Source: Acidimicrobiaceae bacterium (GTDB lineage Bacteria; Actinomycetota; Acidimicrobiia; Acidimicrobiales; Poriferisodalaceae). From it: a stretch of DNA of 64,000 nt. Where the stretch lies: positions 10,974-74,973 of the forward strand of contig PBKA01000010.1 in the NCBI GenBank assembly GCA_002721305.1, written 5' to 3'. How positions within the stretch are numbered: position 1 is the stretch's first letter; each line of letters begins with the position of its first letter. A model generated the notes under the pieces. It searched no databases. It was not told the origin of the DNA and was given only the letters and a program-made list of their open reading frames with translations. Positions 1,994 to 60,648 of this stretch are shown here, one piece after another. The position numbers and the translations under genes are program-made.

Positions 1994-3679
1994 TCAGGTA
2001 TCGATCTCAAACCAGGCCAGGGTTGTCCTCCCGAGCGAGTCGAGGTGCTTATGACTATCGGCGCGAAGGTTCCGAAGATTTCCCCGCGGATTCGCGATGA
2101 CTTGCTCCAAATAGATTTTGACCTTCGGTTCAGTCCCGCTAGGCCGGATCGCCATTCGTACACCAGCGTCTGATCGAAATTCGAGGAGGTTGGCAGAAAA
2201 TGGATCTGGCAGCGTCGACCAATCGGTCACAGCGACTATGGGGCTTCCCATCAGATCAGTGGGAGGGTTGATTCGGAGGTTGTTGAGCGTTGCCTCGATA
2301 GCAACGGCTTCGAATTGGCCACTTACTTGTGTCGTCACATATAGACCTATTTCGAGTGCCAACTCGTCTAGGCGGGCCTACGGGTCAGTACCGCGAGAGT
2401 TCAGTTCGTACCACATTTCGAGAAATGTAATTGCCGCTGCAATACCGTCTTTGTCAAGAACTAGGTCATTGACCGAATATCCCAGTGCTTCTTCGTATCC
2501 GAATATCCAGTTGCTGTCAGATAGCGACACTGCAGGTTCCATGATCCATTTAAAGCCAGTGAGTGTGCGGACGTGTTCAACACCATGGGCGGCGCACAAT
2601 GTTCCGACCGCCTCTGAGGAAACAAATGAACTAGCTGTTAAACGGTTCTCACCAGACGTCTTCGAGAGCTGGTGATCGCATAGCAAGAGCCCCAATTCAT
2701 CACCCGTCAGTTGATGCCAACCGAGATCGGTTCTTACCGCCACAGCCAACCGGTCGGCATCTGGATCGTTGGCGACGACCAGGGGAGCGTTTGCTTTATC
2801 CGCGACAGAGTAAGCAGCGTCAAGTACCCCAGGCTCTTCGGGATTTGGAAATGGGAGGCCAGGAAATGAACCATCAGGCTCAAATTGGTTATTGACGCGA
2901 ACGGGAGACGGGATACCCGCTCGAAAGCAAGCGGCTTCCATGGTCGCACCCCCCACCCCACATAGGGGTGAGTAGACCCAATGAGGGAAGTCGCTTCTGG
3001 GGTCTCTTTGGTTACTGCTCGGTATAACGGCTTCGATATAGGCCGCAATTGCTTCGTCTCCGGAGAGAAATTCGACTTCGTCGACTGAAGCCAGATCCTC
3101 ATCGTCAGGAAGATGAGAAAAATTCATCAAGGACTCGATCTTTCGATCCTCCGGTGGTCGTATCTGAGATCCGTCGGGTCCGTAAACCTTGTAGCCACTG
3201 TCTGGGGCCGGGTTATGACTGGCTGTAACCACGATGGCACCCGCTGCGGTCCTCATCTTTTGGTGCCATACGACTACCGGAGTCGGACATGGATCGTCGA
3301 TCAGCAAGCAGGGAATTTTCAAAGCAGTCAACAACAGCGCCGTGTCCAAAGCATAAATATCGGAGTCCGGTCGGGCGTCGTACCCGATAACAACACCACT
3401 CCGCGCTAGGCCAAGATCGAGAAGGTGTAACCCGATAGCGCGTGCCGTCACGCGTACCGTCACCCGATTCATGTGGGACGGTCCGACACCGCGTGGTGCC
3501 CTGAGACCCGCTGTTCCGAATTGAAGCTTTGTGGAAAAATACTGATCTAGGAATACGGAGTCAGAAGCCCTTTCGGCAACGATGGACTTCCCAGATGAAT
3601 CCGGATCCGCGACAATCCAGGCTGCGGGTTGAACCACAAGTCCCGGTACCACATCAGTCACCAACTCATCCTGCCTCAT
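1994..3679 (-). pseudogene. alpha-D-phosphohexomutase (phosphoglucomutase/phosphomannomutase family) interrupted by an in-frame TAG at 2378-2380
   Basis: ORF 2378-3679 carries the catalytic-Ser loop TASHNPAPDSGYKVY. ORF 1994-2362 carries the domain-IV phosphate-binding loop RPSGTEPKVKIY. Both are in the same frame. The reading across the junction is ...LNSRGTDP * ARLDELALEIGLY... Confidence 0.7.
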
Positions 3680-3718: not shown

Positions 3719-5107
3719 ATGCTTTTCCCAACGCTGGCCTTTGGCCTTTTCTTTGTCGCCGTCTACCTACTCAACTGGTTGACGCGCCCGCACCCCTTGG
3801 TTTGGCGCATCACCATCTTTGGATCAAGTCTCTTCTTTTATGCCTGGTGGAACTGGCGCTTCGTTTTCCTCCTCTTGTGGGCTATCACATCAAATTGGTG
3901 CGCAGGAAATCAGATCGACAAGTGCCTCCGGCTCCAAAATACTCAAGGAGCACGAGGCTGGTTACGAACTGCAATCGTGAGTGACTTGGCGATGCTCGGA
4001 GTATTCAAGTACTACGACTTCTTCGCTTTAGAGCTTTCGAACTTGCTCGGTGCCGACACTTCTATTCCGTTGTTGGAGTTGACATTGCCCGTGGGAGTTT
4101 CCTTTTTCACCTTCCAAGCAATGAGTTACGTAATCGACTTGAAGCGGCGTCTAGTGAAACCAATGCCATTCCTTGATTTCGCTGTCTACCTCTCATTCTT
4201 TCCGCAGCTAGTGGCCGGTCCCATAGTTCGAGCCTCGGAGATGGCGCCTCAAATAGCTCAACGTCCTGACCCTCGGACGGTCCCGTCGACTGAAGCCTTT
4301 CACCTGATACTCCGGGGCTTGTTCAAGAAGGTGGTGATTTCTAGTTGGCTGGCAAGCACCTTGGTAGACAACGTTTTTGCCAATCCCGACGGTCATAGCA
4401 GTCACGATGTTCTGCTTGGCGTCTATGGCTACGCGATCCAGATCTATGCTGATTTCTCAGGGTATACAGACATCGCAATTGGTGTTGCACTACTGCTGGG
4501 CTTTCGGTTCCCCACAAACTTCGACTGTCCCTACCGTGCGCTTTCGCTGAGAGACTTCTGGAAAAGGTGGCATATAACGCTTTCCTCGTGGTTGCGTGAC
4601 TACCTCTACATTCCACTAGGAGGCAACCGCGGCCGAAACTCGGAGACCTATCGGAACCTTCTCATCACCATGGTCCTAGGAGGGCTCTGGCACGGCAGCA
4701 CCTGGAACTTCGTGATTTGGGGAATGATCCACGGGGTCGCTCTCATGATCGAACGGTTGCTACCGAATCGGGATATTCACCCGATGTTCAGATGGGTAAT
4801 CACGTTCCATGTCGTGTGCTTCGCGTGGGTCTTTTTCAGAGCTGAGTCATTCGCCGCTGCTCTGGATGTGTTGGCTGCCATATTCTCCTCCCCGGGTAAC
4901 GATCAGATTTCAAGCTTTCCCATCGTGTTGGTTATCGGCTTCGCTCTAGCTGCCCAATTCGCCCCTAAATCGGAAGTAGCGCGGCTCAAAAACCGCCTGA
5001 ATCGGTCTGGGATTGCGACGCAAGGGTTGGCATTCGGGATCGGACTTGTTCTCATCGACTTGCTCGGTCCCGACGGAGTCGCCCCCTTTATTTACTTTCA
5101 ATTCTGA
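3719..5107 (+). CDS. MBOAT-family membrane O-acyltransferase (AlgI/DltB/PatA-like)
   Basis: 462-aa polytopic ORF with MBOAT hallmarks WHITLSSWLRDYLYIPLGGNRG and GGLWHGSTWNFVIWG (conserved His). Confidence 0.85.
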   Translation: MLFPTLAFGLFFVAVYLLNWLTRPHPLVWRITIFGSSLFFYAWWNWRFVFLLLWAITSNWCAGNQIDKCLRLQNTQGARGWLRTAIVSDLAMLGVFKYYDFFALELSNLLGADTSIPLLELTLPVGVSFFTFQAMSYVIDLKRRLVKPMPFLDFAVYLSFFPQLVAGPIVRASEMAPQIAQRPDPRTVPSTEAFHLILRGLFKKVVISSWLASTLVDNVFANPDGHSSHDVLLGVYGYAIQIYADFSGYTDIAIGVALLLGFRFPTNFDCPYRALSLRDFWKRWHITLSSWLRDYLYIPLGGNRGRNSETYRNLLITMVLGGLWHGSTWNFVIWGMIHGVALMIERLLPNRDIHPMFRWVITFHVVCFAWVFFRAESFAAALDVLAAIFSSPGNDQISSFPIVLVIGFALAAQFAPKSEVARLKNRLNRSGIATQGLAFGIGLVLIDLLGPDGVAPFIYFQF

Positions 5108-50246: not shown

Positions 50247-51023
50247 ATGGAGATTAAAGATCGCATAGCAATTATCACAGGAGGTGGCGGCGGCATTGGG
50301 TCGGCCACAGCCCGCAAATGGGTTTCGGAAGGCGCTAGACAAGTAGTGGTAGCTGACTACAACGAGGAAGCAGCCCTCTTAGTTGCCGAACAACTGGGTT
50401 GTACGGGTGTCGGGCTGGACGTGACCGATGAACAAGCTGTAAGTCAGCTGGTTGAAGACACTGAAACCACAAGCGGGCCAGTCGACATCTTCTTTTCGAA
50501 CGCTGGTGCGGGCGCAGAGGGTGGTGTCGAAGCTCCCAATGAGGCCTGGCAGTCGCAATGGGAACTACATGTGATGTCTCACGTGTACGCAGCCCGAGCC
50601 GTACTGCCTTCTATGACAGCGCGAGGGGAGGGCTACCTAGTGCACACGGCCAGCGCAGCCGGCCTTCTCGCAGCAGTCGGTTCGGCTCCGTATTCAGTTA
50701 CGAAGGCAGCGTGCATCAAACTTGCCGAAACACTTGCGATAACCCACGGCGACGACGGAATACGGGTTTCAGTGTTGTGTCCACAGGGAGTAAACACCGC
50801 CATGGCCCCTCGACAACTTGGCGACGGCGGCACAGATGGGATTGTCGAGCCTGATTTCGTCGCCGACAAGATCACACAGGCGATACAAGATGAAGAGTTC
50901 TTGATCTTGTCTCATCCAGAAGTACAAACCTACACGGAACGTAAGGCATCAGATCCTGACAGATGGCTTAACGGCATGCGTCGTCTTCGTAGAAGATCGC
51001 TTGATCTTCTCGAGGGCGCGTGA
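50247..51023 (+). CDS. SDR-family oxidoreductase
   Basis: TGGGGGIGSATA and the catalytic YSVTKAA. Confidence 0.85.
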   Translation: MEIKDRIAIITGGGGGIGSATARKWVSEGARQVVVADYNEEAALLVAEQLGCTGVGLDVTDEQAVSQLVEDTETTSGPVDIFFSNAGAGAEGGVEAPNEAWQSQWELHVMSHVYAARAVLPSMTARGEGYLVHTASAAGLLAAVGSAPYSVTKAACIKLAETLAITHGDDGIRVSVLCPQGVNTAMAPRQLGDGGTDGIVEPDFVADKITQAIQDEEFLILSHPEVQTYTERKASDPDRWLNGMRRLRRRSLDLLEGA

Positions 51024-51958
51024 ACAAGTCCGGCGGACTCCGTCCCAAACCCAGTCAGTCTTCCAACGTCACAACAGTCGGCTTAGTAGTTCTTACAGCA
51101 CTACTGATCGGACTCAATTACACGGTCATGAAGTGGGCCCTAGATCACACCACTCCGCTGGCGCTAGCCGCCCTTCGGACATCCGTCGGCGCCCCATTTT
51201 TGCTAGCGATAGCATTCCTACGCGGAGAAAAGTTGCCCCAAAACCGCCAACAATGGTTGGCCGTCTGGTGGATCTCGCTCTCTATCACAACCGTGTCAAG
51301 CGGATTCCTCGTCCTTGGAATTTCGCGCCTCTCGCCGGGCTTAGCAGCGATGCTGTCGGCAACTATGCCCCTCTTCACGGCCATCATCGCCGTGCTGGTG
51401 CTCGTTGAACTACCGGGGCATCGCGGATATTTTGGACTGCTCATTGGTCTGCTCGGGGCCGTATTTTTGGCCATTCCGGCACTCGGATCAGGCAACACGA
51501 TTCTTGGTATAGCGTTTTCGCTCATTTCCAGCGTCAGTTGGGCAATAGGAGCAGTCCTCAACAAGCGGTTACGGGGGGCACTAGAAATCAGCCCTTTGAT
51601 GCTTGTTGCCCTACAGATCACATTTTCCGCGGTGTGTCTGCACTTAACGGTTCTATTTATTGAAGATTGGTCGGACACCTCAATTAGTTGGGGACTCATA
51701 GTGCCGTTGTTATATGCGGGCATTCCGTCGCTTGCGGTCACGTTCTACCTCTTTGCAAGTGTTCTTCGACGTGCGCCTGCGATACAGGGAGCTGCCGTCG
51801 CGTACCTGACACCCTTCTTTGGTGTGTTGTTTAGTTGGCTCCTCGTCGGTGATCGGCTTGGAGGTGTCGAAATAGTCGGCGGCTTGCTCGTCATCGCAGG
51901 TGTCGCACTTTTGTCTGTTGATCGTCGATCATCAGACCTGCAATCGATTGACGAGTGA
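51020..51958 (+). CDS. DMT-superfamily (EamA-like) transporter
   Basis: About ten hydrophobic segments with two EamA-like halves. GTGA overlap with the SDR gene. Confidence 0.8.
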   Translation: MNKSGGLRPKPSQSSNVTTVGLVVLTALLIGLNYTVMKWALDHTTPLALAALRTSVGAPFLLAIAFLRGEKLPQNRQQWLAVWWISLSITTVSSGFLVLGISRLSPGLAAMLSATMPLFTAIIAVLVLVELPGHRGYFGLLIGLLGAVFLAIPALGSGNTILGIAFSLISSVSWAIGAVLNKRLRGALEISPLMLVALQITFSAVCLHLTVLFIEDWSDTSISWGLIVPLLYAGIPSLAVTFYLFASVLRRAPAIQGAAVAYLTPFFGVLFSWLLVGDRLGGVEIVGGLLVIAGVALLSVDRRSSDLQSIDE

Positions 51959-51973
51959 CGTAGCCTCGGGGCT

Positions 51974-53119
51974 ATGGCAGATAGCGACATTAAGGCAATG
52001 ACGGAAAATCTTGATGCCGTCGAGTTTGATGAAACAGCATTCACTGTCCCCGTTCCTCTAACTGAGGCAAAGGTGGCGATCGTGACTTCTGCATCTCTAC
52101 ATCACCCCGACGACGAAGACTTCTCGCCCATGGACACGGGCTATCGAGTGTTGAAATCCGAGCCTCGCGATTATGTGATGGGGCATTGGAGTCCAAACTT
52201 TGATGTGACAGGCTTCGCGCTGGATATCAACACCGTGTTTCCCATTGACCGTCTCGACGAGTTAGCAGCGCAAGGAGTCATCGGCTCCGTAGCCGAAGAA
52301 CACCTTGCGTATGCGGGTAACCAGTTCGAGTTGTCTGCGATACGGATGGACAGTGGGCCAGCAGGGGCCAAGTTCCTCAAAGAACAAGATGTCGATGTCG
52401 TCTTACTCACCCCTGTCTGACCGTTGTGCACGCGTACCGTGAGTACGCTCGCTCACATATTCGAATCGGAAGGTCTTGCCACCATTGCCTTCGGCTCCAT
52501 CAAATCCCAGATAGAAGCCACAGCGCCTCCGCGAGGACTTTGGTGTGATTTTCCGTTGGGAAGGCCTCTCGGCGTTCCGTCCGACCCAGAGTTCCAACAT
52601 CGGGTGCTGGGGAAGGCCTTTGAGTTGCTCGATAGCCCAGAACCAGTTTTTGCAGAGTATGACATCAGTATCACTGATGACGAGACCGAGGTTTTGGCAT
52701 GTCCAATGCCCCCCCGACATGACCCAGATGCCCACCCGGCGGTCGACGAAGCCAACGGCCTGCGTCCGGCATATGAACGCGCTATTGCTGAATATGGCAA
52801 CCGAGTCGGAGCCGGGAGGGTTGTTCAGGTCGACGATATAACGACCGCGATAGAAGCCTTTGTGAAGATTGCCGAAGGGACTCCGTGGAAAGAAGCTGGA
52901 GTACCCGGAATTCCATCACGAGTGAGTCAAGACATTCGGGGATATTACGAAACAGCGGCGTTAGCACTGTCAGACTATGCACCCCCGGCGTGGGCTGGGA
53001 CGCGTTGGTTCCTAGACCAAACCGAGGCTGGCAAAGTGATCATGGCTGCGAGGCAGGCCATGGCTGACGCGGGTGAACAAAATCCCATTTGGTTCTACAT
53101 GGCTCCGGGGGATCGCTAG
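51974..53119 (+). CDS. glycine/sarcosine/betaine/D-proline reductase selenoprotein B (GrdB/PrdB) family protein; candidate selenoprotein with in-frame UGA at 52418-52420
   Basis: ORFs 51974-52420 and 52424-53119 share one frame and are separated only by TGA CCG. The read-through gives ...DVDVVLLTPV-U-PLCTRTVSTLAHIFESEGLATIAFGS...PPRGLWCDFPLGRPLG..., which matches my memory of single-polypeptide GrdB-like proteins. There is no SD or ATG/GTG start for the second half. Confidence 0.7.
52432..52448 (+). promoter_or_regulatory. SECIS-like hairpin 11 nt downstream of the in-frame UGA
   Basis: Stem GCGTAC (52432-52437), loop CGTGA, stem GTACGC (52443-52448). A possible lower helix pairs TGTGC (52425-52429) with GCTCA (52451-52455), with one mismatch. 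Confidence 0.5.
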
Positions 53120-53127
53120 TCAAGGTT

Positions 53128-54363
53128 GTGATCTTTTCGGTTCAGCCAGTTGAGCACAGATTCTTCGGTTGGCGCGTCGTGGCGGCCGCGTTTACGGTCC
53201 TTTTTGTCGTTTACGGGATCCAGTTCAGTTTTGGCACCTTTGTCGGGGACGTAGTTGATGACACCGGGTGGTCCGAAAATCGGCTCCAATTGATTTTCGC
53301 TATCTACATCGGGTTATACAGCGCTTTATCGGCGATAAGCGGATGGGTCACTGACCGGATGGGACCACGACCCGTGGTGGCAGTAGGGGCGATCTTGTTA
53401 ACTTGCGGCTACCTGCTATGGGCCACCGCTGACAACATTGTTGTTGTTGCTATCGGGATGGCCGTAATCGCTCCCCTTGGAATGAGTTGTTCTTGGGTGC
53501 CTTGCAATGCAACGGTTGTGCGGTGGTTTGTTGTCCGACGAGGTTATGCGACGGCAATCGCAACTGCAGGCGGCAGCCTCGCCAACATTTTGGTCCCACC
53601 GATTGCAGCGGTACTTGTTTCAGCATACGGATGGCGGATAGCGATTCTTGCGATGTCGCTGATGGGCGGTGTCTGCATGTTGCTCAGTTCGATCGTGCTG
53701 GAGCGAGACCCCGAAGGAATAGGACAACACCCTGATGGACGGCCCGCGTCCAGACCCAATCCGGGCGAAGACCTCCTAGAAGGAATGACTCCCGCCGAAG
53801 CATGGAGAAGTCCGACGTATTGGAAGATCTTCGGGATGTACGCACTCACATTTGTTGCGGTGTTCGTGCCATTTGTTCACTGTGTGCAATTCGCCCAGAG
53901 CTTGGGTGCCTCACTTCAAACTGCCTCAACTGTTATCTCGACAATCGGAATCGGTGGTCTGCTTGGCCGCCTTGTGATGGGACCAGTATCTGATCGGATC
54001 GGCAGAAAAAATGCGGTCATGTTGGCCTTGCTCTTAGAGACGGCATCATTTCTGGGAATGGCCGCTACCAACACCTTGTGGCTGTTGTACTTGTCGGCGG
54101 CAACATTTGGGTTTGCTTATGGGGGAGGAGTTGTGGTCTTCCCGCCCCTCGTTGCAGACCTGTTTGGCCGCGCCCATGCTGGGTCAATCGTGGGCAGAAT
54201 CTTCGCGACCGCCGGAGCAATGGCGGCGATTGGCCCCTACACAGCACAGGTGTTGCGCGATGCATTAGGTGACTACAGATGGGCTTTCTTGCTCTCAGGT
54301 ATAGCGAATGGGCTCGCTTTCATGCTCGCAACACGGCTTCCTCGGCATGCCGAACAACCCTAA
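53128..54363 (+). CDS. MFS transporter (oxalate/formate antiporter-like)
   Basis: 12-TM-like profile and the motif GWVTDRMGPRP. I chose GTG 53128, just after the upstream stop; the ORF-track start 53089 overlaps the upstream gene. Confidence 0.8.
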   Translation: MIFSVQPVEHRFFGWRVVAAAFTVLFVVYGIQFSFGTFVGDVVDDTGWSENRLQLIFAIYIGLYSALSAISGWVTDRMGPRPVVAVGAILLTCGYLLWATADNIVVVAIGMAVIAPLGMSCSWVPCNATVVRWFVVRRGYATAIATAGGSLANILVPPIAAVLVSAYGWRIAILAMSLMGGVCMLLSSIVLERDPEGIGQHPDGRPASRPNPGEDLLEGMTPAEAWRSPTYWKIFGMYALTFVAVFVPFVHCVQFAQSLGASLQTASTVISTIGIGGLLGRLVMGPVSDRIGRKNAVMLALLLETASFLGMAATNTLWLLYLSAATFGFAYGGGVVVFPPLVADLFGRAHAGSIVGRIFATAGAMAAIGPYTAQVLRDALGDYRWAFLLSGIANGLAFMLATRLPRHAEQP

Positions 54364-57927: not shown

Positions 57928-58061
57928 GGGTGGGCAAGTCGCCCCTTTCACATCTCTAGTTATTGAACCTCCGGGACGGATCACGGCGGCCGAACGGCCG
58001 AGGACCATGTGATCTCCTAGTTAACTGTGCGAATGTGTCTGCGAGCCAGCAGACTGGACGT

Positions 58062-59456
58062 ATGGATAACCAGGACCTGGATATCGCTAACTCTGTACTT
58101 GATCTCATCGGCAAGACGCCGATGGTCAAGTTGCCGAGAGTCGGCAGAACAGTTGCCTGTTCGATTGTCGCCAAACTTGAGACCACTAACCCTGGCGGAA
58201 GTTCCAAAGATAGACCAGCCCTCACAATGATCGACGACGCCGAAAAGGCTGGCCTTCTAAAGCCCGGAGGAACCATCATCGAACCCACCTCTGGGAACAC
58301 TGGCGTCGGTCTGGCCATAGTCGCCGCACAACGTGGTTATGACTGCATTTTCGTCATGACCGACAAAGTCAGCAACGAAAAGGTTGCCCTCCTAGAGGCG
58401 TACGGAGCGGAGGTCGTTGTTTGTCCCGTGGCCGTTCCACCGGAAGACCCTCGTTCTTACTACTCCACAGCGGAACGACTGGTTAAAGAAATCCCGAACG
58501 CGTATCGCCCCAACCAGTATCACAACCAAGCGAACCCTAGATCTCATTACGAAACCACGGGACCCGAAATCTGGGAACAAACTAAAGGCCGTGTTACCCA
58601 CTTTGTTGCTGGCGCAGGCACAGGAGGCACAATCACAGGGGTCGGCAGATATTTAAAGGAACAAAATCCCAAGATAACAATAGTTGCCGCTGATCCAACT
58701 AATTCCGTGTACTCAGGTGGCAGCGGCCGACCATACCTAGTTGAAGGTGTGGGCGAAGACTTTTGGCCTGACACCTACGATCCGGGAATAGTTGATTCCA
58801 CCATCGCGATCACCGATGCCGAGTCGTTTGCTATGGCGCACCGAGTCACTGTCGAAGAGGGAATCCTTATCGGTGGTTCAGGAGGAACAGCGGTTGCGGC
58901 TGCGTTGCGAGTTGCTGAAAATCTGACTGATCAAGACCTGGTCGTCGTCCTCATTCCTGACAGCGGCCGCGGATATTTGAGCAAAGTTTTTGACAAGTCG
59001 TGGATGATCAACATGGGCTTCTCGAGATACGAAGGGTCGACGGTCTCAGATGTTCTTGATCGCATAAGCGGAGGCGAACCCAACTTGATTTATGTTCGCC
59101 CCGAAACCAAGGTCGGAGACGCTCTTGAGATCATGCGTCAGCATGACCTACCTGTAATTCCGGTGGCAAGTGGTGAAATGCCGATAGCGGCCGCGGAAGT
59201 CATGGGTTCGGTGTCCGAAGACTCCTTGACGGAGCAATCTTTTGACGCTGATGGCTCGCTCAACCAGAGAGTCGATGAAGTGATGGGTCCGCACCTACCA
59301 ATGGTTGGAATAGGAGAATCCTTGGAGATCGCGGTCAATGAGCTTCAGAACTCGCCGGTGCTTCTAGTGCTTGACAACGGCCAGCCACGTAGTTTGTTGA
59401 CTGAATCAGACCTAAAAGGCTCTGACATTGGAGAACACGACCGGGAGGTGAGTTGA
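58062..59456 (+). CDS. cbs: cystathionine beta-synthase (CysK-fold PLP domain plus tandem CBS domains)
   Basis: PLP-Lys region TNPGGSSKDRPAL, SGNTGVGLA and GAGTGGTITG, with a C-terminal CBS pair. ATG 58062 preferred over the ORF-track start 57963. Confidence 0.9.
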   Translation: MDNQDLDIANSVLDLIGKTPMVKLPRVGRTVACSIVAKLETTNPGGSSKDRPALTMIDDAEKAGLLKPGGTIIEPTSGNTGVGLAIVAAQRGYDCIFVMTDKVSNEKVALLEAYGAEVVVCPVAVPPEDPRSYYSTAERLVKEIPNAYRPNQYHNQANPRSHYETTGPEIWEQTKGRVTHFVAGAGTGGTITGVGRYLKEQNPKITIVAADPTNSVYSGGSGRPYLVEGVGEDFWPDTYDPGIVDSTIAITDAESFAMAHRVTVEEGILIGGSGGTAVAAALRVAENLTDQDLVVVLIPDSGRGYLSKVFDKSWMINMGFSRYEGSTVSDVLDRISGGEPNLIYVRPETKVGDALEIMRQHDLPVIPVASGEMPIAAAEVMGSVSEDSLTEQSFDADGSLNQRVDEVMGPHLPMVGIGESLEIAVNELQNSPVLLVLDNGQPRSLLTESDLKGSDIGEHDREVS

Positions 59457-59457
59457 A

Positions 59458-60648
59458 ATGATGGGCGGTGACCCCCTTCTTTCAGGATTCGAAGATCCAG
59501 AGGACTTCGGATTCGAGACACGCGCGATTCGAGCAGGCCAACCCCACGACCAGCGAACCGGCGGGGTTGTGACGCCGATATCGTTGTCGACTACCTTCGC
59601 TCAGGATGCACCCGGATCTCCAAGGAACGGATATGAATATTCGAGAACGGGAAACCCGACCCGTCACGCTTATGAAGCGTGCGTTGCTTCCCTAGAAGGT
59701 GCCAAATATGGTTTCGCCTTTGCAAGTGGCCTCTCAGCCGAAGATGCCTTATTTCGCCAGCTATCACCCGGGTCTCAAATTTTGTTGGGTAACGACGCCT
59801 ACGGAGGGACCTTTCGACTGATCGACAGTGTCCACGGTAAGAAATCTGGCTTGGCCAACGCGGCTGTCGATCTGACGAAACCTGAACAAATCAAAGAGGT
59901 CTGGACCCCAGACACAAAGATGGTGTGGCTGGAGACACCCACCAACCCACTGCTTTCGGTATTCGATATTCAGGCCATTGCTGATCTAGTGCATGACTTG
60001 GGAGGCACCGTCGTAGTGGACAACACTTTCGCGACTCCCTATTTGCAGCAACCCCTGTCGCTCGGAGCCGACGTAGTAGTGCATTCCGCAACAAAGTACA
60101 TCGGTGGTCATAGCGATGTTGTCGGAGGTTTCGTGGCTACCAACCATGAATCACTCGCCGACGACCTGGTCTATGTACAAAACGCGGTCGGAGCAGTTCC
60201 AAGTCCGTTTGACTGTTATCTGGCGTTGAGAGGGGTCAAGACACTGCCGGTGCGCATGGATCGCCACTGTGAAAACGCCCAACTCATCGTCTCACTACTC
60301 AAAGCACATGATGCGGTGAGCCAAGTGCTGTATCCCGGGCTGGCGGAACACCCCGGTCATGAGATTGCTTCTAGACAGATGAAGAACTTCGGAGGGATGG
60401 TCAGTTTCCGATTGGCGGCGGGACAAGCGGCAGCTGAGCAGCTCGTTACCGCGACAGAAATTTTCACGCTCGCAGAATCTTTAGGGGCGGTTGAATCGCT
60501 CATCGAGCACCCAGGGGTGATGACGCATCTGTCCGTTGCGGGTTCCGCTCTCGAAGTACCTGACGACTTGGTACGAGTGTCGGTAGGGATTGAATCAGCT
60601 GACGATCTCGTGGCGGATCTCACCCAAGCTCTAGATCAACTCGGATAG
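59458..60648 (+). CDS. cystathionine gamma-lyase/gamma-synthase family PLP enzyme
   Basis: YSRTGNPT and the PLP-Lys motif HSATKYIGGHSDVVGG. Confidence 0.9.
   Translation: MMGGDPLLSGFEDPEDFGFETRAIRAGQPHDQRTGGVVTPISLSTTFAQDAPGSPRNGYEYSRTGNPTRHAYEACVASLEGAKYGFAFASGLSAEDALFRQLSPGSQILLGNDAYGGTFRLIDSVHGKKSGLANAAVDLTKPEQIKEVWTPDTKMVWLETPTNPLLSVFDIQAIADLVHDLGGTVVVDNTFATPYLQQPLSLGADVVVHSATKYIGGHSDVVGGFVATNHESLADDLVYVQNAVGAVPSPFDCYLALRGVKTLPVRMDRHCENAQLIVSLLKAHDAVSQVLYPGLAEHPGHEIASRQMKNFGGMVSFRLAAGQAAAEQLVTATEIFTLAESLGAVESLIEHPGVMTHLSVAGSALEVPDDLVRVSVGIESADDLVADLTQALDQLG

Follow-up and report, generated by a model that had tools for sequence, protein, structure and literature searches.

The 17-nt stem-loop at positions 52432-52448 of the window, the 64-kb stretch of DNA analysed here, is with high confidence a bacterial SECIS element, located in a gene for a PrdB-like UxxC selenoprotein of a marine Acidimicrobiales bacterium. 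Conservation among orthologs, covariation of the stem, loss of the structure in Cys forms, the local fold, and a spacing and size like those of the E. coli element all support this assignment, which was put forward in an earlier, sequence-only reading of the same DNA.

Gene callers report the PrdB-like gene as two ORFs (51974-52420 and 52424-53119). The TGA at 52418-52420 is in frame with both, and the reading frame is continuous across it, with the putative Sec residue embedded in the motif TPV-U-PLC-TR (UxxC). The protein scores 107.6 bits against the TIGR04483 PrdB profile and 22 bits, just over the cut-off, against PF07355. Among solved structures, no relative was found at E <= 0.01. The gene architecture is identical in 158 orthologs, and 29 clusters of full-length homologs carry Cys at the position aligned with the UGA codon, suggesting that UGA 52418-52420 is decoded as selenocysteine. 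When every pair of ORFs in the same frame and linked by a single TGA was scanned, the PrdB-like gene emerged as the sole convincing selenoprotein gene of the window. In the public records of close relatives the gene is split, and its C-terminal pieces of 214-226 aa are named 'hypothetical protein'; recognition of the UGA and the hairpin would join the pieces into a single 381-aa selenoenzyme of a widespread lineage of marine Acidimicrobiales. The components of the gene and of the hairpin are listed in Table 1.

Table 1. Predicted selenoprotein gene and elements of the candidate SECIS (window coordinates).
Feature	Positions	Strand	Description
PrdB/GrdB-like selenoprotein gene (predicted)	51974..53119	+	381 codons, Sec U149; read-through translation open
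In-frame UGA, putative selenocysteine codon	52418..52420	+	TGA at the aligned codon in orthologs; Cys in homologs
Spacer, 11 nt (ccgttgtgcac)	52421..52431	+	codons Pro150, Leu151, Cys152 and 2 nt of Thr153
Possible 2-bp extension under the stem	52428..52452	+	G52428-C52452 and C52429-G52451, across a 2x2 internal loop; in RNAalifold consensus
SECIS upper stem, 5' arm GCGUAC	52432..52437	+	pairing 98.4%, compensatory changes, suppressed synonymous variation
Apical pentaloop CGUGA	52438..52442	+	G52439 and U52440 (alignment G22 and U23) invariant in 139 distinct sequences
SECIS upper stem, 3' arm GUACGC	52443..52448	+	pair counts; 8/8 contrasts covary at pair 18-28

The sequence-only reading had placed the TGA, the 11-nt spacer, the 6-bp stem and the loop CGTGA, with G at its second position, at coordinates that all proved correct, and the two arms form a perfect 6-bp helix. 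The bSECIS model (bSECISearch; PMC13188914, Fig. 2) describes a loop of 3-9 nt, an upper stem of 4-16 bp, a UGA-to-loop distance of 16-37 nt and an MFE <= -7.5 kcal/mol, its hallmark being a G as the first or second loop nucleotide, with G or U as the usual next base (PMC13188914). The hairpin follows these rules of geometry, loop and spacing: it combines a 6-bp stem and a 5-nt loop carrying G2 and U3 with a UGA-to-loop distance of 17 nt that shows no length variation across 139 sequences. It also lies within the ORF directly 3' of a UGA that aligns with Cys in homologs, is conserved together with this UGA and is lost in Cys homologs. The MFE of the 17-nt hairpin alone is -6.8 kcal/mol and, with the 2-bp lower extension, reaches -10.2 (31 nt) and -10.9 kcal/mol (48 nt), the threshold of the model being -7.5 kcal/mol.

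The minimal SECIS of E. coli fdhF is a 17-nt upper stem-loop spanning nt 15-31 from the U of the UGA, 11 nt from the codon (Liu et al. 1998, per PMC8659212). The close match to this element claimed in the earlier reading holds for spacing and size, which are the same here (nt 15-31, 11 nt), but the likeness is geometric only. The bulged U17 of fdhF is missing, the 6-bp helix being free of bulges in all 139 sequences; the invariant G-U occupies positions 22-23, in a pentaloop, compared to 23-24 in fdhF; and nothing conserved corresponds to the 40-nt lower helix of fdhF. G52439 and U52440 are presumed to contact SelB, and loop positions 1, 4 and 5 are variable (CGUGA, GGUCA, UGUCA, CGUGU and others). 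A lower helix had been proposed for the window hairpin as well, and the pairing of 52425-52429 with 52451-52455 does comprise one U-U mismatch and a 2x2 internal loop, as described. However, only the two inner pairs are constant, and these are uninformative because they are fixed by Cys (TGY) and Ala (GCN) codons, whereas the remainder is not conserved, with pairs 9-37 and 10-36 unpaired in 48% and 70% of sequences, respectively. Being either uninformative or not conserved, the lower helix as proposed was rejected.

When 52418-52470 is folded with ViennaRNA, the 6-bp stem is present in both the MFE and the centroid structure, and the proposed hairpin is the dominant local fold; the centroid of 52380-52500 also holds the stem, and its base pairs form with probabilities of 0.68-0.91 across four sequence contexts. 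The folding energy is no better than that of shuffled sequences (z = +0.93 and +0.80). An equivalent hairpin, that is, a perfect one of at least 6 bp obeying the same loop and spacing rules, accompanies 55 of the 2300 TGA triplets in the window (2.4%), and one at the identical spacing 0.35% of them; the window has a single copy of the exact motif, compared to 0 in shuffles. From the single sequence alone, the hairpin is only weakly above chance, and it is the comparison with orthologs and homologs that places it far above. Bacterial SECIS elements are thinly covered in Rfam, which returned no SECIS or tRNA-Sec match for 51900-53200 at E <= 10 or for the whole window at gathering thresholds.

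The ortholog set comprised 158 loci, including 78 from genomes, mostly of Acidimicrobiia and also of Gammaproteobacteria, Chloroflexia and Myxococcota, and 80 from metagenomes, which were scanned with a Cys form as query. TGA occupies the aligned codon in 79 of 79 cases among the window and the genome loci and in 80 of 80 metagenome loci. Pairing in the upper stem reaches 98.4% across the 139 distinct sequences of 55 nt, and the spacer is fixed in length, with zero indels. The stem pairs change from U-A to C-G in 22 cases, from A-U to G-C in 4 and from G-C to G-U in 14. The compensatory changes on which the sequence-only reading had made its case depend are thus present, at alignment columns 18-28 and 19-27, and the hairpin is kept in essentially all 158 UGA orthologs. 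The observed covariation score was not reached by any shuffle, and slid registers are only 3-70% paired. In tree-based independent contrasts, both sides of pair 18-28 change together in 8 of 8 cases (sign test p = 0.008), and joint change was likewise found in both contrasts (2/2) for pair 19-27.

The coding context of these changes is informative. On one side of the stem the compensating partners are synonymous (Arg154 CGT to CGC; codon 157 NGT to NGC), whereas on the other they change the amino acid (Thr158 to Ala or Val; Thr155 to Ala), and given that a synonymous change compensates for an amino-acid replacement, protein constraint cannot be the source of the covariation. Furthermore, codons 153-159 have the seven lowest third-position entropies among the 114 conserved codons with four- or six-fold degeneracy. 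Their mean is 0.42 bits compared to 1.67 bits for the others, and a value this low never arose when seven codons were drawn at random 100,000 times. For instance, codon 158 is ACG in all 70 Thr-bearing sequences. Unlike in the stem, the wobble positions of the spacer are free, with a third-position entropy of ~1.5 bits at the four/six-fold codons Pro150 and Leu151. Overall, the hairpin is co-inherited with the UGA, and the stem is under RNA-level selection on the sense strand. Elsewhere in the fetched DNA, the hairpin motif was found only in paralogous PrdB-like copies (L158 and L061), in a truncated copy (L071) and in a TCA variant (L173).

The hairpin disappears where the codon is Cys. Of roughly 40 non-Sec clusters, which carry Cys, Gly, Ala or Ser, 12 homologs were compared, and eleven of the 12 lack the stem. 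In the nine Cys homologs with C-T/S-R-T, only 2-5 of the 6 stem pairs can form and the codons are varied, whereas 30 of 34 Sec forms of like divergence (<=56% identity) retain 6/6 pairs; the Gly form has four pairs and the Ala form three. The loss in Cys homologs, anticipated in the earlier reading, is seen although the T-R-T-x-x-T-L peptide is kept. The one exception, L173, retains 6/6 pairs with TCA (Ser), a codon one base from TGA, and most simply reflects either a single-base mutation of TGA in the very recent past or a sequencing error. Separately, one residue is invariant in Sec forms only.

Three other explanations of the hairpin were considered. The UGA might be read through without Sec-tRNA(Sec), by a near-cognate Trp or Cys tRNA or a suppressor, with the hairpin as a generic stimulator of read-through. 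Downstream structures can promote read-through in other systems, and Sec machinery genes were not found within the 64-kb window, where ARAGORN and Pfam searches (the latter on 20 window ORFs) recovered no tRNA-Sec, selA, selB or selD; ARAGORN also detected no tRNA-Sec on any of the fetched loci. However, Actinomarina, belonging to the related marine Acidimicrobiia, is reported to possess selA, selB, selC and selD (preprint 10.64898/2026.04.03.716425). Moreover, the UGA falls within UxxC where homologs have their catalytic Cys, in a PrdB/GrdB superfamily that is built around selenoproteins, and this family is already among the listed marine selenoproteins. Given also that the hairpin obeys the specific bSECIS rules, loop G-U included, and that TGA serves as a regular stop codon in the rest of the window, terminating 19 of 47 long ORFs, we consider such read-through very unlikely.

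Even less probable is a function unrelated to Sec, with the inverted repeat serving as a regulator-bound DNA palindrome, a restriction-modification target, or an RNA element that affects stability or pausing. GCGTAC/GTACGC is indeed a perfect DNA palindrome arm pair, and covariation alone does not separate a DNA palindrome from an RNA stem. By contrast, the G-U (G-T) wobbles, seen at one pair in 14 of the 139 sequences and at another in a single sequence (15 in total), are compatible with pairing in the sense-strand reading only, which argues for RNA rather than a symmetric DNA site. Practically all of the 158 TGA forms carry the element, which is missing from 11 of 12 non-TGA forms, lies at a constant 11 nt from the UGA and has an invariant loop G-U; it is not a terminator, because no U-run follows it. 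Finally, the notion that the hairpin is a chance inverted repeat or a by-product of amino-acid conservation (C-T-R-T-V-S-T-L), lacking any RNA function, is hardly credible: although Sec and Cys forms share a conserved active-site peptide, the folding z-score is unremarkable and equivalent hairpins attend 2.4% of TGA triplets, this view is already contradicted by the third-codon positions of the hairpin, the seven most frozen in the gene, by the Cys forms, which encode the same peptide with other codons and have lost the stem, and by the synonymous offsetting of non-synonymous change across the stem in 8/8 independent contrasts.

Under the SECIS assignment, the mode of action would be that established in E. 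coli and Moorella. SelB, the Sec-specific elongation factor carrying GTP and Sec-tRNA(Sec), would bind the apical G-U and the upper stem on the mRNA through its C-terminal winged-helix domain. The fixed 11-nt spacer would position the hairpin at the mRNA entrance of the ribosome while UGA 52418-52420 is in the A site, and the tethered SelB would deliver Sec, outcompeting release factor 2, whereupon translation would run on through the remaining 232 codons. For the window gene, both SelB binding and actual Sec insertion are inferred by analogy with these systems.

At the nucleotide level, Actinomycetota, Pseudomonadota, Chloroflexota and Myxococcota have nearly the same stem, GCGUAC/GUACGC, and only the loop is retuned across phyla, through synonymous changes. 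The CGUGA loop dominates in Actinomycetota, whereas GGUCA, GGUCU or UGUCA is found in seven of nine Gammaproteobacteria. The fdhF loop sequence starts with GGUC, and the same start is found in five of the nine gammaproteobacterial orthologs. Loop positions 1 and 4 covary (C..G, G..C, A..U), and the corresponding cross-loop pair 21-24 is pairable in 93.5% of sequences, with 13 double changes and just three supporting independent contrasts (p = 0.25). This pattern is suggestive of a cross-loop pair that might present the invariant G-U to SelB, which we do not claim. At residue 156 only Val occurs, and codon 157 is NGU or NGC throughout. A tentative reading of these patterns, which we consider possible but rather doubtful, is that the gene and its SECIS travel as a cassette working with the SelB of at least four phyla, and that the RNA in turn dictates the protein sequence at Val156 and residue 157. 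If this were true, the natural series would provide a ready-made map of lineage-specific rules of SelB-SECIS recognition. With its seven frozen codons and synonymously compensated substitutions, the family is an unusually clean natural case of an RNA signal shaping a protein.

The gene belongs to the marine 'Proline reductase PrdB' selenoprotein family described by Zhang, Fomenko and Gladyshev in 2005 (PMC1088965) and by Zhang and Gladyshev in 2008 (PMC2398784), which was the third most abundant in the Sargasso Sea, with 42 sequences, and comprised 235 sequences in Global Ocean Sampling (GOS) (PMC1088965, PMC2398784). The supplement lists the Sargasso sequence AACY01584242, 'Proline reductase PrdB', with TGA CCGCTTTGCAC GCGTAC CGTGG GTACGC, and AACY01802489 with GCGTAC CGTGT GTACGC (PMC1088965). 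The stem and the 11-nt spacing of AACY01584242 are identical to those of the window hairpin and a single loop base differs. A full-text search of the literature for the peptide and hairpin strings gave no match in body text, the match being that in the supplement. The window protein shares the UxxC motif (U-P-L-C) and pfam07355 with the family and is 52% identical to the AACY01584242 product over 172 aa (E = 2e-58), including the family-specific C-terminal part. Nothing essential is different, and the window gene is one more ortholog, in Acidimicrobiales. The find is sound but ordinary, given that the gene family and the hairpin have been catalogued since 2005. The covariation, the codon freezing and the Cys-form control exceed the structure prediction of that year, and the conclusion is the same. 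There is no new biology in the SECIS mechanism or the selenoprotein family, both in the literature since 2005, and the hairpin is silent on the function of the enzyme.

Clostridial D-proline reductase PrdB and glycine reductase GrdB share with the window protein a homologous N-terminal domain and Sec in UxxC at the aligned position. They differ in that the window protein carries an extra C-terminal domain of ~160 aa and scores far below the TIGR04483 equivalog cut-off for PrdB proper (107.6 versus 300 bits), and that the hosts here are aerobic marine heterotrophs. No prdA/grdA-type partner (the pyruvoyl subunit PrdA of the prd operon) was detected by Pfam among the ten neighbours, and the PrdB-like protein is probably not a proline reductase. 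These neighbours encode a luciferase-like monooxygenase, PhyH, SDR, EamA, MFS, POR/DUF6537, PALP-CBS, a Cys/Met PLP enzyme, Amt and a histidine phosphatase. DMT and MFS transporters are included in the neighbourhood of the gene.

The hairpin that follows the in-frame UGA of the PrdB-like UxxC gene is, apart from a proposed lower helix and the detail of its E. coli subtype, very probably a bacterial SECIS (bSECIS), as the sequence-only reading had held: UGA is kept in the window and in 78 genome and 80 metagenome loci, the stem covaries, codons 153-159 are frozen, and the stem has decayed in Cys-containing homologues. On re-reading of the sequence, the coordinates claimed for the TGA, the 11-nt spacer, the 6-bp stem and the CGTGA loop all proved exact. 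Read-through of the TGA yields a product of 381 residues (motif LLTPV-U-PLC-TRTVSTLAH in translation), which is distantly related to D-proline reductase PrdB and to protein B of glycine/sarcosine/betaine reductase, matching TIGR04483 at 107.6 bits, far under the cut-off of 300, and PF07355 at 22.1 bits, at the cut-off. Given that no PrdA-like partner was found among the neighbours of the gene, the label 'proline reductase' is doubtful. TGA is an ordinary stop in the window, where it terminates 19 of the 47 long ORFs, that of the EamA transporter immediately upstream among them.

Features of the probable selenoprotein gene, its hairpin and its neighbours (window coordinates)
Feature	Position	Strand	Remark
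In-frame TGA	52418-52420	+	joins two ORFs
Spacer, 11 nt, ccgttgtgcac	52421-52431	+	between TGA and stem
Stem 5' arm GCGTAC	52432-52437	+	perfect 6 bp with GTACGC
Loop CGTGA	52438-52442	+	5 nt
Stem 3' arm GTACGC	52443-52448	+	perfect 6 bp with GCGTAC
ORF upstream of TGA; ORF downstream	51974-52420; 52424-53119	+	single frame
EamA/DMT transporter gene	51020-51958		upstream neighbour of selenoprotein gene
MFS transporter gene	53089-54363		adjoins selenoprotein gene on other side
POR/DUF6537 2-oxoacid:ferredoxin oxidoreductase-like protein, 1161 aa	54442-57927		after MFS gene
PALP-CBS enzyme, then Cys/Met-metabolism PLP enzyme	57963-60648		after POR/DUF6537 gene

Taken singly, the sequence offers weak evidence for a SECIS. 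ViennaRNA places the 6-bp stem in both the MFE and the centroid folds of 52418-52470, the region that had been singled out for folding, and in the centroid of 52380-52500, with stem pair probabilities of 0.68-0.91 across four sequence contexts. The bare hairpin reaches only -6.8 kcal/mol, folding of the region shows no advantage over dinucleotide shuffles (z = +0.93 and +0.80), and Rfam returned no match to it. Perfect hairpins of at least 6 bp under the same loop and spacing rules follow 2.4% of all 2300 TGA triplets in the window, and an equivalent hairpin at the identical spacing follows 0.35%. The match in spacing and size, previously described as striking, alone amounts to a coincidence of about 1 in 40 to 1 in 300.

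Unlike the single sequence, we consider the comparison of homologues decisive. A genome scan limited to one genome per species recovered 80 loci, mostly from marine Acidimicrobiia but including nine from Pseudomonadota, of which several lie on complete chromosomes and seven are labelled Gammaproteobacteria, together with single loci from Chloroflexia and Myxococcota; TGA stands at the aligned position in the window and in every one of the 78 loci that span it. Starting from three aligned Cys-containing homologues, a scan of metagenomes added 80 loci with 45-90% protein identity to the window protein, and TGA is found in 80/80. Across 139 distinct 55-nt sequences from the TGA onward, aligned without indels and numbered from the U of UGA (upper stem-loop, columns 15-31), 98.4% of upper-stem cells are paired. 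Pair 18-28 is U-A in 116 sequences, C-G in 22 and U-G in one; pair 19-27 is A-U in 135 and G-C in four; pair 17-29 is G-C in 125 and G-U in 14. The observed covariation score was reached by none of 500 column shuffles, pairing drops to 3-70% when the 3' arm is slid to other registers, and the RNAalifold consensus gives the same stem. The compensatory changes anticipated among UGA-containing orthologues are present: along supported branches of the protein tree, both sides of pair 18-28 change together in 8/8 phylogenetically independent contrasts (sign test p = 0.008), and those of pair 19-27 in 2/2. UGA and hairpin are co-inherited. Second, tandem PrdB-like copies lie downstream of the first in two loci (L158, about 3170-3230; L061, about 4640-4700), each with its own TGA, 11 nt and GCGTACCGTG(G/A)GTACGC hairpin.

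The constraint falls on RNA rather than protein. Column 18 falls at the wobble position of Arg154 (CGT to CGC, silent) and pairs with column 28, the first position of codon 158, where ACG Thr gives way to GCG Ala or GTG Val; likewise, column 27, at the wobble position of codon 157, pairs with column 19, which opens codon 155 (Thr to Ala). Because wobble bases are thus paired with first codon bases, a silent change goes together with an amino-acid replacement at a distance of four codons. In a codon alignment of 74 full-length genome orthologues, 114 conserved codons are four- or six-fold degenerate, and the seven lowest third-position entropies among them belong to exactly the hairpin codons, 153-159 (mean 0.42 bits versus 1.67 +/- 0.21 elsewhere; as low in 0/100,000 random draws of seven codons). 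In these orthologues, the Thr158 codon is ACG in 70/70, Ser157 is never TCN and Arg154 is only CGT or CGC, while four- and six-fold codons in the spacer and flanks are free to vary (about 1.5 bits at Pro150 and Leu151). A symmetric DNA site is not compatible with the G-U pairs, which fit sense-strand RNA only. What selection preserves is an RNA stem on the sense strand, together with a loop G-U whose distance from UGA is constant. Residue 157 of Sec forms may be Ser, Cys or Gly, yet its codon is always NGT (NGC if the partner base changes), and Val156, the source of the loop G-U, is invariant in Sec forms, and Cys forms carry V, S, I, A, C or L there (L161-L170 compared); the SECIS dictates the protein sequence at codons 156-157 (52439-52444).

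Full-length homologue clusters without Sec carry Cys (29), Gly (8), Ser (1) or Ala (1) at the aligned position. In the DNA of nine Cys forms, the motif C-T/S-R-T/I-x-x-x-L is kept throughout with varied codons (ACA, ACT, ACC, ACG; CGC, CGT, CGG, CGA, AGG; others), and the expected loss of the hairpin is seen, only 2, 2, 2, 2, 3, 3, 3, 5 and 5 of the 6 pairs being retained. By comparison, of 34 divergence-matched Sec forms (<=56% identity to the window protein), 30 have 6/6 pairs, three 5/6 and one 4/6. A Gly form has four stem pairs and an Ala form three (one sequence each). The structure decays once the codon is no longer UGA. The single Ser form (L173:301-1455; ENA ERZ25039541 contig_52303) combines a TCA codon with an intact 6/6 stem, GCGTAC cgtgt GTGCGC; TCA lies one base from TGA, and the Sec codon seems to have been lost very recently, unless the sequence or its assembly is in error. 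The eight Gly clusters (P0133, P0154, P0156, P0162, P0199, P0201-P0203) read TPL-G-PMCTRTVCVLAH and carry a new Cys in place of residue 157, which may mean that the active site was rearranged or that function was lost.

The bSECIS model (PMC13188914) specifies a 3-9-nt apical loop, a 4-16-bp stem, G at loop position 1 or 2 (normally with G or U next), 16-37 nt from UGA to loop and an MFE of -7.5 kcal/mol or lower. With a 5-nt loop, 6 bp, G2-U3 and 17 nt from UGA to loop, the hairpin lies within these rules, although the bare stem misses the energy limit, which is reached only with a small extension. The lower helix drawn in the sequence-only reading (52425-29 with 52451-55) lacks support: outer pairs 9-37 and 10-36 are unpaired in 67/139 and 97/139 sequences, the inner two are constant but set by the Cys152 (TGY) and Ala160 (GCN) codons, and in a 300-nt context the pair probability of the helix is down to 0.01. 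What is left is at most an extension of 2 bp, set off from the stem by a 2x2 internal loop, which brings the element to -10.2 kcal/mol. In the minimal E. coli fdhF element, a 17-nt stem-loop spans nt 15-31, lies 11 nt beyond the UGA and has a bulged U17 and loop G23/U24 (PMC8659212). The asserted likeness to fdhF holds for position and spacing, which are identical; the stem here has no bulged U, and the invariant loop G-U is present at 22-23. By the general definition, the element is thus a bacterial SECIS, E. coli-like in geometry but not of the fdhF subtype.

The loop variant (columns 21-25, window 52438-52442) tracks phylum, being mostly CGUGA in Actinomycetota and GGUCA, GGUCU or UGUCA in 7/9 Pseudomonadota loci (L055, L058, L060, L064, L070, L073, L077). 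The GGUC start of five of these resembles the E. coli fdhF loop. Neither difference alters the protein (Thr ACC to ACG, Val GTG to GTC), and the variants may stem from SelB preferences particular to each lineage. Loop positions 1 and 4 (columns 21/24, window 52438/52441), both wobble bases, covary (C..G 116, G..C 11, A..U 2, non-pairs 9), which hints at a cross-loop pair extruding the invariant G-U, with only three independent contrasts (p = 0.25).

By analogy with the established bacterial model, SelB-GTP-Sec-tRNA(Sec) would bind the loop G-U and upper stem via its C-terminal winged-helix domain, the 11-nt spacer would set the hairpin at the mRNA entrance while UGA occupies the A site, and Sec would then be delivered in competition with RF2. 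A functional SECIS requires tRNA-Sec, SelA, SelB and SelD, none of which was found within the 64-kb window. Full Sec machinery is reported in all 84 complete genomes of Actinomarina, another marine Acidimicrobiia order (2026 preprint 10.64898/2026.04.03.716425), making the trait plausible in this organism. We found no published experimental demonstration of Sec insertion for the PrdB-like family.

Both family and hairpin are already catalogued: 'Proline reductase PrdB' (UxxC) was the third most abundant selenoprotein family in the Sargasso Sea (42 genes; PMC1088965), and the GOS analysis listed 235 genes (PMC2398784). AACY01584242 from the 2005 supplement (PMC1088965) encodes a protein beginning VVLLTPVuPLCTRTVGTLAS, which over 172 aa has 52% identity to the window protein (E = 2e-58), a match that takes in the C-terminal region specific to the family. 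Its DNA reads TGA CCGCTTTGCAC GCGTAC CGTGG GTACGC, and it shares hairpin and spacing with the window gene, as does AACY01802489 from the same supplement. An unrelated peroxiredoxin selenoprotein gene listed there, AACY01587908 (TGA, 15 nt, GCGTAC CGTGATCA GTACGC), has the same stem hexamers and loop start CGUG, which suggests a SelB-preferred sequence common to different selenoprotein genes of one lineage. What is added to the known family is modest, namely, a very clean case of RNA-over-protein constraint, lineage-linked loop variants and systematic gene mis-annotation. The PrdB-like family is systematically split in MAG records; in public annotation of close relatives (P0002, P0032, P0055), only the 214-226-aa post-TGA piece appears, as a 'hypothetical protein'.
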